Origin: a virus
Lineage: Duplodnaviria; Caudoviricetes
IMG/VR virus record: IMGVR_UViG_3300028139_000001
Span: 19,516-83,515 of that record
DNA: 64,000 nucleotides
Direction: 5' to 3' (one strand)
Positions 10,001-16,000 of the stretch are shown one piece after another; position 1 is the first letter of the stretch, and every line of letters starts with the position of its first letter. A program made the translations under genes and the position numbers. The notes under the pieces are model-generated. The model saw only the letters and a program-made list of their open reading frames with translations. It was not told the origin of the DNA and searched no databases.

Positions 10001-13000
10001 AGTTACAAAATTAACGGATATCACAGATAAGATTGTTCCGTTATTTCAGAAAAACTCCATACAAGGGGTAAAATATTTAGATTTCTTAGCTTTTGTTTCA
10101 ATCGTAGAATTAATGAATAATAAAGTTCATTTAACAGAAAAAGGGGTAAATCAAATTAAAGAAATAAAAGCCGGAATGAATAAAGGAAGAGACAATTAAT
10201 TTGTCTTATTTATTTGCATGATAAATTTGGTGGTCGTGAAAAAATTAGAATGTAGATTAGAAATCTCTCAAAGACGAGAAGATCACAAAGGATATGATAA
10301 TTTCGATTTCTTAAGTAATATTGCTGAGTTTTTAGAAACAGAAGTAAAAAAAATAAGATCGGATAGACCGAAACCTGAGTATAGAGTTAGAACTACTAAT
10401 CTTAAAGGTAATATTAAAGCTAAAAATTATCTTTTACAATTTCCTCTATTTGGAACTAAACATTTAGATTCATTAGATTGAATGGAAGTAGTAGACATGT
10501 TTGATAAAAAGGAGCATAATACAGATGAAGGAAAGAAAAAAATAGTAAAGATCAAATCAGGTATGAACAATTTCAGAACAAATTTTACTTTTGATCATTT
10601 ACAAAACTTCTACAACTTAAAAAGGGGGAACCCTCTATTTTTAAGTGCTCACAGACACGATTCTACTGAAGGGTCAGTAGTTCCAGTCAAAATCTACTTA
10701 AATGCGGATCTAGATAAGCAAGCTATAATTACCGAAAATAGAGGTAAATCGGGTATTTATCTTTGGGTAAACTTAAAAAATAGTGAAGTATATATTGGTA
10801 GTAGTGTGAGCCTAGGGGTCAGACTTAGAAAATACTATAGCCATTATTATCTTACAAAAGGTAGTAAAGGTATGTACATTTCTAGAGCTCTATTAAAATA
10901 CGGGTACTCAGGGTTTAAACTAGAGATTTTAGAATACTGTGCTCCAGAAAAGTGCCTTGAAAGAGAACAATACTATATCGATAAATTAAACCCTAAATAT
11001 AATGTCCTACCTACAGCCGGTTCCCCTCGTGGTCGTAAACATACAGAGGAAGCCCGTAAATTAATGTCAGAGGCTAAAAAAGGTAACAGAAATGCCACTG
11101 GTCATATAGTTTCTGAAGAAGTCCGAGCCAAAATGTCGGAAGCTAAAAAAGGGTGGAAAAGGCCAGAAAGAGCTGGACGTCACCCCGTTCTGATAGAAGT
11201 AATAGATCTTGAGACAGGAATGACCCAACAATATCCCTCAATAAGGGATCTTTCTAGAGCCATAGGTGTACATGCAGGAAGCATTAGTAATTATTTATTA
11301 CCCCCTAGTGGAAAGTCTTCCTCAAGTAAAACTAAAAAGCCTTATAAAGGTAGGTATATATTTAAATATATATAAAAACATATACCTTCCCTATCCTTGC
11401 TTTCACCTCTGTGGAAAAAATTTATATTGTAGGGGGCTGCTAGGTAGCCTAAAAATAAAATATATTTTTTTTGCAAGGGTAAAACCAAAACCTGAAAATT
11501 TATATAAAAATATAAGATATAGTCCGATCAAGCACGAGAGTGTTTGCGTGCCTACACTAAGGTTTAATAACCTTTTTAAGCTTAAAGAACAACACTAAGC
11601 TATGTGATTTCATCAAGTAGGCCAACAATTTTAATGGGAATAACTATGGTTCTAACGGACCGTAACTTTAATACATCATTCTTTGAGGTAGCAGGGGGTG
11701 GGGATCCTATATTATATCAACATCTTTTCTTCTTCTTGGTTTTATTACCAAGTAAATTTAAAAATATATCATATCATGATTATATAAATTGAGAATATGA
11801 ATGCTGTCCTAAGCCCCACTCGTTTGCAAATGTTCCATTACATAGTGTACCGCCAAAATTCAGTGCTAGATGGCAGCCCTATAATCGTGATCAGCAAAGG
11901 GGAGTACAATTAACTAACCGTCGTTCTGAATCGCCAGATGGAATAATCGATCAACTAAGGGCAGCACCATTAACTACCCGTCGTTCTGCATCGCCAGATG
12001 GAATAATCAATCAGGAAAGGAGAGTACCATTAACTACCCGTCGTTCTCCATCGCCAGATGGAGTACTCGATCAGCAAAGGGGAGTACCCTTAAATAACCA
12101 TCGTTCTGAATCGACATATGGAATAATCGATCAACTAAGGGCAGCACCACTAACTACTCGTAATTCTGCATCGCCAGAATTAATACCCCGTCTTCCCTCT
12201 CCTCCTATAGCAGCATATCCAGGCTGGGATACACCTGTAGAGCGGAGTGGTAGATTTATTGAATGACGTAGGCAGAGAAGATTAATACCTACAAATGAAC
12301 AGCTAGTTCAATTAGAGGCTGATTTATGGTTTTACCAAGATAAACTAATTTCAAATCCTAATTGTACTGCTCAGCGAGATATTGATGCTATTCAAAGGGA
12401 AATTCTTTTAATAAGAGAACGGTTACGTACGGAAGAGATAACACAGCGACTAAGAGAGTCCCAAGCACAACCGGAAACACAGCCGGAAATACAGCCGGAA
12501 ACACAGACGCAAACACAGACGCAAACACAGCCGCAAATACAAGAGGAACCGCAACAACGTCATCCCTCAGGTTGGACACCTATTAATTGGAAACCTGGTG
12601 ACCCAACTACAAATGCTTGTATAACTCTTGTTAGTACAAGAGTGTCCCCATTAGTTGTAAGTATGATAAACCATTTAAGACCATTATTAAGTCTAATAAT
12701 ACCTTTAGTCTTATCTGCTTTAACTTTGATTAGTTTATCTTTCATTTCAGATATTCATATCTTGTTAACTAGTATGTTAGGTGAAATTTTTGGGTCAGTT
12801 CTTTGGGGTTTATGAATAGTTATAGTCTTTTTATTAAGGCTAGTACTTATGATTCGTAAAGCTAAAAAGTCTGTTGTTCTATATGAAAAATTCTTTAATT
12901 TTGCAGCTAATCATTATTCATCTTGAATACTATACTTTTTTATCTTTTTACTAAGTGTAGGATTAGTCTACTGTTGTGGTTGTAATTGTAATTGTGTTTG

Positions 13001-16000
13001 TGATTGTTATTGTGTTTGGGATTGTATTATTAATTGTGATACACCTAGAGATTGAGGACTATATTTTTAATATAGTGCTAATCCAAAAGTAGAAGCTTTT
13101 GTTAAATAATGTGATAATTTTTGGTGTTAATTGGTTATTACATATATATTTAATATGTTCTAATAGTATAATATAATTATTTTTTTTTTCACAATTTCAT
13201 TTTTTTTTTAGTGGAAAAAAGGATTTAGTTTTAACTTTAATATTTATCCAAGTGGGGAATAAATCTAGCAATATTAAAGCCTTAAATGTATTATTTACAC
13301 ATCGTATAATTTCTAGACATTCAGAAAATAATACTTATGAATTTTAATTATATGGAGTAAACAATTGTAAAAATATCTTATCTTGTTTATATAACAATTA
13401 TATACGATATAATCTTCATCCTGTATCTTTTGCATATATATTAAAATATATTTTATATATAAATTTTTTTCATCTTCAATTATGGGTGTCCTTTCTTTTT
13501 TTTAAGTGTAATACGCTTAAAGAGTTAGTATATTTAGCCTACAAAATGTTAAGAACTTCATGGAAGAGAAGTCAAGGTTAACTGTAAAGTTTAACAGCTA
13601 TTGTGACAGATGTAAAATATGAATAAGTTCATATTGGCCAAATATATTACATATAATATATACCTTAGACTTAGTTAATATATATATCTATTACTTGCAA
13701 CTCTTAATATTAAAGATATAATTTTATATAGTAACTTAAACTGTATATGATTAATAGAAAAAGTGATAAAAATATTAGCAATGCTGGCAAAAACGGTCAA
13801 TATACGCTCTATTAAAGACCGTCGGTTAATTAAGTAATCGCTACAGACTGCTATGCCGGTGGGTGTCTGAAATGATGCTTATGTACAGTCGATTTCTTCT
13901 ATCAGAGATACGATACACAGGGCCGGAGTTTAGACTATCGGTACAGGGATTTAATAGGAGGAATTTAAAATAAGTTAAATCTGAAGAAATGGATTTTTTG
14001 GTCACCCAGAGGTTACGAATATAGGCCTCTTAACGTTACCATATGCTGGGACTGCTTCGCTATATGGTTCTAAATACTCCATCTTAAATGATACAGTAAA
14101 AAAGTTAGAACAAAGAAGTAAATCAGCAGGTAAAATTATAACTAAAAAATTTGAAACCTCAGAGACTTTACGTAACGGGATTGTAGTAAATTCAGAACAT
14201 GTTAAACATATATCAAAGCATGTTCCTAAGCATTTGAAGCCTCTTAATAACGAACAATTAGGTTATTATTTAGCTGGTTTAATAGATGGTGATGGTCATT
14301 TCAGTAAAGCTCAACAATTAGTTATAGTATTTAGTAATCCAGATGCATTTCTTGCTTATTATCTAAAAAAACGAATAGGGTACGGGGCAGTAAGAAAAGT
14401 AAAATCAAATTCAGCCGTTATCCTAATTTTTTCTAAACCAGAGGGATTAAAAAAAAATATTGAACTTAATTAACGGTAAACTTAGAACACAATCTAAGCT
14501 AGATGCCGTTAAAGAATTTATACATAATTTTAAATTGTTGCAAACTAACACAGATTTTAAATTAAATAATTCAAATTGTTTAAATAATCATTGGTTAGCT
14601 GGATTTTCTGATGTAAGTGCTAGTTTTCAAATAAAAAAATTAGATTTTAATGTGGAAATATGTCTAGTTTTTATTGTAAAATATAAGGAGATTGTTACTA
14701 TAATAAAAAACTTTTTAGGTGGAAATATTGCCTATGATAAATCTAAAGATGAGTATTTATATAATTCATCTAGTTTTGGTTCGGCTAGAAAAGTTATTAA
14801 TTATTTTAATAAGTATCATTTATTGTCAAAAAAGCACATTGATTATTTAAGATGGAGAAAAGCTTATTTAAATGTTATGGATTATCAAAAATGAATTTAT
14901 GATAACAAATTTAGACAAACTTTCTTATTATCTCCAAATTCAGTGCAATCTCGAAGTTATTCGATTTCAACGCCCATAAAATATTTAGACCCTCACTGGG
15001 TGACAGGCTTTGTAGATGGTGATGGGTGTTTTTCCATTGTTATTCTAAAAAACCTAGAATCTAAACTAGGTTGAAGAGTTAAACCTGTATTTTCAATCAG
15101 TCTGCATAAAAAAGATAGAATTATTTTGGAAAAGATACAGTCTTATTTTGGAGGTATAGGAAATATTTATCCGCAAAGTATAAATGGTATACAATACCAA
15201 GTCTTTTCTCAACAAGAGTTGGCTGACACAATTATCCCCTTTTTTAATAAATATACATTATTAACGCAAAAATGGGCGGATTTTGAACTATTTAAAAGGG
15301 CTTTAGAGGTAATTAATAGCAAAGAACATTTAACTATTGAAGGATTACGTAAAATTGTTACCCTTAAAGCTTCATTAAATAGGGGTTTACCTGATGAATT
15401 AAAACAGGTATTTCCTAATACTACTCTTATTCAAAGACCTTTAATGGAGATAACCCAAATCTTAAACCCTAGCTGAATAGCTGGATTCGTTTCAGCCGAG
15501 GGTTGTTTTATGATTAAAATTAAACCATCCAAAACAAAACTAGGTGAGGCTGTTCATTTAGAATTTCAAATTACTCAACACATTCGAGATGAAACATTAA
15601 TGAAAATGTTTGTTTCTTATTTTAAAGCTGGAAAAAATAACAATTCAGGTAGCGCAGCTATAGACTTTAGAGTTGCAAAATCATCTGATATTCAAGATAA
15701 AATTATTCCATTTTTTGATAAGTATCCTATCATTGGTGTTAAATCTCAAGATTTTGAAGATTTTAAAAAAGTAGCCGAGCTAATTAAAAATAAGGTTCAT
15801 TTGACAAATAAAGGTTTAGAAAATATTCGTTTAATTAAAGCAGGAATGAATAAAAGGAGATAATAAATAGAATTCATTTTGCAGAGTTTTTTTATATTTT
15901 ATTTAATATAAAAATTATATAATTTTTACTTTACAGTACTTAATCTGTACTTTATTAAAGGGTGTGGGTTAATATTATATGATTAGCAGTACTTTTTTAT

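Follow-up and report, generated by a model that had tools for sequence, protein, structure and literature searches.

Why does a group I-type intron of cox1 contain a long open frame that begins with the end of Cox1 and finishes with the start of Cox2? The intron lies in a 64,000-nt stretch of DNA (positions 19,516 to 83,515 of IMG/VR virus record IMGVR_UViG_3300028139_000001; hereafter the window, whose own numbering is used below, with features on the plus strand unless stated). The window is a fungal-type mitochondrial genome in which TGA encodes Trp (translation table 4) and cox1 is spread over approximately 900–27000, split by many introns. A preliminary description, made from the sequence alone, had proposed that a cox1–cargo–cox2 linker from another genome was captured into this intron and kept open. 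The evidence presented here supports a copied junction and an open frame, and places the capture in an intron lineage, not in this genome. The account we favour, to which we give a probability of roughly 65%, is that a mobile intron lineage carries the junction copy and that selection maintains its reading frame and membrane character.

A junction copy in the cox1 intron

The frame at 11586–13070 is open for 494 codons under table 4, including five TGA Trp codons, and its 446-codon intron part runs on from cox1 exon 5, as the preliminary description had stated. None of 445 codons in the frame is a stop, whereas the 120 codons that follow in register contain 14 (Fisher p = 2e-10); this contrast excludes a chance origin of the open frame and bears out the claim that the cassette was kept open. 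After the intron's own in-frame leader (11731–11807; 25 codons, GC 0.21; translations of relatives show a hydrophobic leader of similar length) comes a 13-residue copy of the Cox1 C-terminal tail (11808–11846). Nine of its 13 residues equal those of the native tail at 26968–27006, and the motif is retained in most family members. At the other end, a copy of the Cox2 N-terminus (CDTPRDWGLYF) is followed by a TAA stop (13035–13070; nucleotide match and alignments). Segment 13030–13096 is 82% identical to native 27158–27224 over 67 nt (E = 5e-13). A decayed continuation of the Cox2 head occupies 13071–13142, with weaker similarity in alignments to about 13140, some 24 codons beyond the stop, in agreement with the initial observation; the TAA at the FWC* codon is common to the window and its nearest relative, L007 (related loci are denoted by L numbers, proteins by P numbers). 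The Cox1-tail copy (11808) and the Cox2-head copy (13035) lie on the same strand and in one frame, as expected of a junction module.

At the native junction, the last exon of cox1 and the first exon of cox2 form a single open frame (26722–27500), in which the Cox1 tail, a 52-codon linker and the Cox2 head follow one another without a change of frame (26968–27195; sequence and translation). This linker has one hydrophobic segment and contains neither an ATG nor a stop, so Cox2 can be produced only via a polyprotein or an unusual start. Elsewhere in the window, the C-terminal end of Cox2 is present twice, at 37152 and 38252 (about 1.1 kb apart), the second resembling a partial duplicate.

A native fused cox1–cox2 frame is also found in L003, L004 and L005, with linkers of 190, 281 and 152 codons, respectively. 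In L004, the frame at 18759–20480 comprises a genuine Cox1 tail, the linker and a genuine Cox2 head, and the 281-codon linker contains the three-helix domain of the cassette (BLASTP E = 4e-16; E = 1e-38 with a hidden Markov model (HMM) built from intron copies alone). A homolog between cox1 and cox2 is therefore present in one of the four genomes with a readable junction; the native linkers of the window, L003 and L005 gave no match to the cassette-domain HMM. These similarities support the view that the cassette is a copy of a cox1–linker–cox2 junction.

A database search returned 15 relatives, and a profile search extended these to 52 clusters (50% identity) at E ≤ 1e-3, with 36 at E ≤ 1e-10; genomic context was read for 30-odd loci. 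This family of at least 52 clusters is found both at this intron site and elsewhere. The cassette occupies the same site, after the same exon end, in L003, L004, L005 and many shorter contigs (range L003–L025), and its presence there in many diverged genomes indicates that it arrived with the intron lineage and was not captured in this genome. A quick, midpoint-rooted family tree separates a group made up of the native L004 copy, P0040, P0063 and P0038 from 47 other rows, which hold all intron copies (Shimodaira–Hasegawa-like approximate likelihood-ratio test, SH-aLRT, 85); members from other contexts branch within the intron copies. This topology fits, without proving, one old capture into the intron followed by later moves.

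Between its two borrowed ends, the cassette has every internal feature listed in the preliminary description, as supported by Tandem Repeats Finder (TRF), hydropathy and AlphaFold. A 60-nt tandem repeat encoding RRSxSP units (11889–12178; TRF, 4.8 copies, 80% matches, GC ~0.45) is predicted to be disordered, with a predicted local distance difference test (pLDDT) score below 50; in alignment A3 these repeats are present in the window only, and L007 has a related RPSSPQGGVMDHL repeat. The stretch first described as coiled-coil-like (12234–12465; cassette residues 143–219) is modelled as a helical hairpin and is conserved across the family. A 12-nt QPET/QT repeat follows (12462–12541; TRF, 6.7 copies, disordered in the AlphaFold model), at whose position relatives have Q/P/T/V/E repeats of varying unit and number. 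Directly before the membrane domain, sequence alignment reveals a conserved 11-residue motif (12558–12590). The three-helix membrane domain (12648–12981; hydropathy peaks of 2.3–2.7, AlphaFold helices at residues 281–391, HMM E = 2.7e-69) is present in a single copy in the window according to the family HMM. It is followed by a Cys-x repeat (12974–13026; TRF units of 6, 12 and 18 nt) whose copy number varies among relatives. The G+C content is 40–52% in the matrix-side half of the cassette (11808–12560), 30% in the membrane half and 29% in the genome.

Searches with the frame against known proteins returned no informative match: Pfam gave noise only for the frame protein P0001 (CCDC53, E = 0.11; PARP, E = 0.99), a PDB sequence profile found no solved relative and one spurious membrane hit (E = 0.028), and Foldseek against PDB found no fold match at E ≤ 0.001, with only generic helical hairpins at E ≥ 1.

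Several family members lie outside the intron site. P0043, P0063 and P0040 were considered as native linkers and rejected: L032 proved to be another junction copy and L034 a pseudogenised one, and P0040 has no context. The L032 copy (1–760) lies directly upstream of cox3 and is open through about 40 Cox2 residues; the L034 copy (200–1840) is frameshifted, with over 100 Cox2 codons in degenerate form. In another fungus (L001 1–3354 and L002 1–2571), a junction copy with about 50 Cox1-tail codons lies between the last exon of cox2 and the real first exon of cox2; after it come another Cox2 head, which is degenerate, and a short leader with one helix. A further copy is located about 3 kb upstream of cob in L026 (1–1184), behind a hydrophobic N-terminus; a nad2 piece guessed at the start of P0027 and L026 was not confirmed by Pfam and was dropped. 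P0060 and L001 (1–864) have a Cox1-tail-like start (YTFYSLPLHSS), several other membrane helices and then an ERSGR..WR / EQL.HLEADLDY hairpin. P0060 has only this hairpin module in common with the window cassette (40% over 70 aa), and the different module order suggests that the linker family is modular.

The intron and the endonuclease behind the cassette

Cox1 exon 5 (11637–11730; 31 residues and the first base of a Trp codon) is delimited by its sequence and by splice joints 8327>11637 and 11727/11730>13992 in RNA contigs, where the loose-end letters TCTTTTCT fix its end at 11730. The intron at the HLF/W site of cox1 (11731–13991; 2261 nt), whose joint is present in contigs of two metatranscriptome runs, is preceded by T (11730) and has G as its last base (13991), the borders of a group I intron. 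It is followed by exon 6, of 22 nt (13992–14013; GA TTT TTT GGT CAC CCA GAG GT; joints 11730>13992 and 14013>16767), and the spliced exons 5 and 6 read HLF-W-FFGHPEV, with the Trp codon split as T/GA.

The 3′ part of the intron (13557–13991, ~430 nt), the presumed ribozyme core, shows 72–78% nucleotide identity to its counterparts in L007, L003, L004 and L012 and is also conserved in L018 and L025. The Rfam group I core model RF00028 gave no match across 11500–14200, even at E ≤ 10; despite the many introns of the window, only one reached the Rfam gathering threshold. Fourteen runs recorded as RNA, all phyllosphere metatranscriptomes, contain 83–97% of the sampled words of the stretch, and raw-read RNA runs X19 and X20 placed 4 and 0 reads on it. 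Splice joints in RNA contigs between 8000 and 18000 include 8327>11637, 14013>16767 and 17236>17945, together with odd joints that end at 17945 and have short foreign letters between.

In L009, L011, L025, L005/L029, L016 and L019–L022, the cassette continues past the Cox2 head into a double-motif LAGLIDADG enzyme (PF00961, E = 1e-27 to 1e-29). This in-frame run-on shows that the cassette is an N-terminal addition to the intron endonuclease gene, not a replacement for it. The description of the cassette as non-endonuclease is correct for the open frame itself, inside which no LAGLIDADG motif, Pfam match (PF00961) or fold was detected, nor any maturase fold by Pfam, PDB profile or Foldseek. Its presentation as an alternative to an endonuclease is not upheld, since relatives run on into the enzyme and the window retains a broken remnant of the enzyme's C-terminal half (13195–13431; tblastn with the L025 endonuclease, E = 4e-14). 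This remnant corresponds to residues 190–256 of the L025 enzyme (43% identical), includes a 10-residue exact match at 13215–13244, and carries an insertion as well as a stop and a change of frame; residues 16–184, in the numbering of an intact relative, are deleted.

Other relatives represent different stages of endonuclease decay: L018 has three stops, L003 has seven stops and a frameshift, L004 is missing the N-terminal domain, L007 retains only the first motif, intact, and in L012 nothing is left. The cassette frame is intact in all of more than 20 distinct copies, whereas more than half of them have a broken endonuclease downstream of it. The point at which the frame ends is conserved to within eight codons of the Cox2 head. 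L003, L018 and L007 share a TAA at the native Cox2 Gln codon (..SASP*MEAF..), and the L004 translation ends at the matching place; read-through forms have Glu there or are missing the stretch. The window has Lys at this codon and a newer TAA eight codons upstream, and shares with L007 a further TAA downstream, inside the former leader of the enzyme.

In L013–L016 (for example, L016 ~7050–7130), a short insert splits the first LAGLIDADG motif, with a second copy in the second motif of L016; these inserts resemble AT-rich hairpin inserts of the window genome.

Selection, topology and alternative explanations

Three tests suggest that the cassette is under selection, the first being the contrast in stops between the window frame and the codons after it. 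For endonuclease-dead copies, a simulation using the observed differences and their spectrum predicts 7–13 new stops per pair under neutral change, and none was observed (probability ≤0.0012 in each of nine pairs, which share sequences and are not independent). The mean hydropathy of the three helices in ten homologs is 1.8–2.6, compared with 1.1–2.0 in a neutral simulation, with 0–15 of 400 simulations reaching the observed value. Host sequences served as controls for the ratio of nonsynonymous to synonymous rates (dN/dS) and gave ordinary values: the ratio is 0.04 for the cox1 tail and cox2 head of the window vs. L004; cox1 exons 4 and 5 of the window vs. L007 give dN = 0.02 and dS = 1.4. 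Within-species copies (more than 50 contigs) are practically identical and uninformative on selection.

The predicted structure agrees with a membrane protein. An AlphaFold model built from 29 sequences has a mean pLDDT of 59, with disordered repeats and Cys tail, a hairpin at residues 162–219 with pLDDT 90–95 and membrane helices at 281–391 with pLDDT 60–75. Both the transmembrane and the coiled-coil features expected from the preliminary description are recovered, as three hydropathy peaks and the confidently modelled helical hairpin. Three helices, as given by hydropathy and the model, are an odd number and would bridge the matrix and the intermembrane space. Helices 2 and 3 are joined by a basic loop (MIRKAKKS), helices 1 and 2 by an acidic one, and the tail is acidic too; under the positive-inside rule, these charges would put the N-terminal part on the matrix side and the tail in the intermembrane space, as required of a segment that joins the C-terminus of Cox1 to the N-terminus of Cox2.

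In the account favoured here, a copy of the cox1–cox2 junction, comprising the last residues of Cox1, the inter-protein linker and the beginning of Cox2, would have been inserted downstream of the 5′ splice site and ahead of the endonuclease gene in a mobile LAGLIDADG-type group I intron lineage. In the window, the endonuclease half appears to have died, mostly by deletion with the rest broken, while the junction copy stays a 446-codon frame. Ribosomes on unspliced precursor RNA would continue past exon 5 into the intron, just as in-frame intron genes are read elsewhere, and would produce a Cox1(1–236) fusion terminated by the TAA at 13068. In this fusion, the helical hairpin and the basic repeats would reside in the matrix and the three helices in the inner membrane; the basic loop joining helices 2 and 3 would face the matrix, and the acidic, Cys-rich tail would extend into the intermembrane space. 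The native polyprotein must be cut at its Cox1-tail and Cox2-head motifs, and cutting at the borrowed copies may release a free protein of approximately 400 residues. A translated inner-membrane protein is the most likely product of the cassette. As far as sequence comparison can tell, selection would hold the frame, the topology and the end points and leave the residues free, as expected for a polyprotein linker or a topology module.

Several results weigh against this account. The dN/dS of the membrane domain (150 codons) is near 1, at 0.8–1.8 in most pairs, 2.8 for the window vs. L025 and 0.3–0.6 only in the deepest pairs, and the differences between the window and L007 are even over the three codon positions (117/104/119). 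Codon measures accordingly suggest no residue-level constraint on the cassette, and the purifying selection that dN/dS was expected to reveal did not appear in it. Some of the divergence used in the stop simulation may predate the loss of a live downstream endonuclease that needed the frame; L018 has only three stops in its enzyme, and L007 retains an intact first motif. The domain has been found at only one clear native junction, that of L004. Intron RNA coverage, at ~5–15% of exon depth in contigs of two runs, is similar to, and not above, that of neighbouring introns; this depth comes from assembled contigs only, which cannot show translation and in which DNA carry-over is possible. The structural model is confident for the hairpin only, and cleavage at the borrowed motifs is presumed.

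Four other explanations were weighed. The frame might be no more than a translated leader, held open only for ribosome passage to the LAGLIDADG gene, with the endonuclease recently dead and the cassette now decaying. Such a mere requirement for openness would itself give dN/dS near 1; cassette and double-motif LAGLIDADG_1 enzyme do form one frame in L009, L011, L025, L005 and L016, and several "dead" enzymes have few lesions, such as the three stops of L018. We consider this explanation quite unlikely, since the enzyme of the window is long dead, with most of it deleted and the rest diverged, behind a cassette that has no lesion. Furthermore, the TAA just after the Cox2 head that is common to L003, L018 and L007, with its match in L004, implies that the cassette has long ended before the enzyme, and the TAA common to the window and L007 lies within the enzyme's former leader. 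Read-through alone also does not account for the kept hydrophobicity of the helices. A decidedly poor chance is given to the possibility that the cassette is a neutral passenger, a dead duplicate that has not yet acquired stops and has no consequential product. Each pair lacks the stops that neutral change predicts, the 445 stop-free codons border on a segment with 14 stops in 120, helix hydrophobicity exceeds the neutral expectation in 10 of 10 comparisons, and the frame has outlasted the endonuclease in many copies. What a neutral passenger would explain are the dN/dS near 1, the even distribution over codon positions, and a nucleotide divergence of the cassette from L007 (20–27%) similar to that of the intron 3′ part (27%); in addition, the repeat units are multiples of three, so that changes in copy number preserve the frame without selection.

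A chimera of Cox1 and Cox2 pieces with an orphan membrane domain, whose frame is maintained while its residues change fast and whose module has been copied into other gene contexts, also recalls an antagonistic selfish membrane protein, similar to the open reading frames (ORFs) of plant cytoplasmic male sterility (CMS), that alters mitochondrial function or transmission and is under diversifying selection. In the first-helix region, dN/dS exceeds 1 for many pairs, but significantly so in one pair only (window vs. L025, Fisher p = 0.0005), the pairs are non-independent, and in L004 the domain is an ordinary native linker; this explanation appears very improbable. The minus strand contains antisense frames of 150 and 193 codons (11879–12331 and 12332–12913) that are open under table 4, and a similar antisense frame is open in L002. 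We give hardly any credence to a real gene there: the plus strand holds every identifiable gene of the window as well as both borrowed flanks (Cox1 tail and Cox2 head), and it is on this strand that the frame joins exon 5 and, in relatives, continues into the endonuclease; the differences have no codon-position pattern fitting an antisense frame, and the antisense translation mirrors the low-complexity repeats. The antisense frames are judged a by-product of the composition of the sense frame.

The favoured account, a junction copy with a selected frame and membrane character, allows several roles for its product. One possible but tentative reading is that the product is a retained form of the linker protein, playing some part in trans where Cox1 and Cox2 are assembled. 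Somewhat more doubtful is a selfish passenger that is tolerated, its frame having been maintained at first by the downstream endonuclease; other readings take the rest. It is also conceivable, though unlikely, that the linker is an inner-membrane protein in its own right, with its hairpin in the matrix and its Cys-rich tail in the intermembrane space. In most of these fungi, its working copy would have moved from the gene junction into the cox1 intron and be expressed there from unspliced RNA, so that a dead mobile intron became indispensable as the home of a host gene. Such a move would account for an intron copy that remains open although both the endonuclease and the domain at the native junction have decayed. 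Flanking-exon dS (0.8–1.4) exceeds membrane-domain dS (0.13–0.2), which might point to a later horizontal spread of the intron, but whole-cassette third-position divergence (30%) is not far below that of the exons.

Significance and relation to known systems

If the favoured account is correct, the linker of the Pleosporales cox1/cox2 fusion, known only as an annotation oddity, would gain a sequence identity, as a family of at least 52 clusters that has no Pfam entry, and a cox1–cox2 linker could be a sizeable membrane protein. A host-derived coding module would be seen to outlive the homing endonuclease to which it was attached, which bears on how selfish introns escape loss and pick up cargo. 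The cassette would also flag intron frames annotated as "hypothetical" that can be mistaken for degenerate endonucleases or missed under the standard code. If its product is made, it would be a new mitochondrially encoded membrane protein of crop- and leaf-associated fungi.

The native arrangement of the window is that of the fused cox1/cox2 frames reported in Pleosporales, including Stemphylium lycopersici, Exserohilum and Corynespora (and also of Acanthamoeba and Dictyostelium), of which the S. lycopersici fused ORF is 2370 bp long, with COX1 extending to nucleotide 1653 and COX2 beginning there (PMC5626475, PMC8956966). The passages of these two papers that deal with the fusion do not treat the linker as a protein and mention neither a long linker with three helices nor junction copies, and a full-text literature search returned nothing on junction copies and no published description of the cassette. 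The cassette is a copy of this junction and differs from the Pleosporales fusion in lying inside an intron, not between genes.

In location and reading mode, the cassette resembles the in-frame LAGLIDADG (PF00961) ORFs of cox1 introns, whose frame is likewise continuous with the upstream exon. It differs from them in that ~300–450 codons of a host-derived membrane protein stand between exon and enzyme and outlive the enzyme. Intron endonuclease genes usually decay once they have become fixed. Similar to the leader of yeast Cox2, which is cleaved by the inner-membrane peptidase, the native linker ends just before mature Cox2 (..C/DAPRAWGLYFQ) and would lead from the matrix to the intermembrane space. 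The junction linker is, however, far longer, has three helices, is joined to Cox1 and has been duplicated into an intron, and its cleavage is putative.

Plant CMS ORFs are chimeric, encode membrane proteins and are co-transcribed with an essential mitochondrial gene. The cassette, whose architecture had reminded the preliminary description of such ORFs, is like them in combining fragments of essential genes with orphan sequence in a predicted membrane protein co-transcribed with an essential gene, a likeness that is descriptive only and concerns build and co-transcription. It differs in belonging to a fungus and in that its orphan part is homologous to a normal native linker and is not a recombination accident. 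As a kind of element, the cassette combines two known ones, the in-frame intron ORF and the cox1/cox2 fusion.

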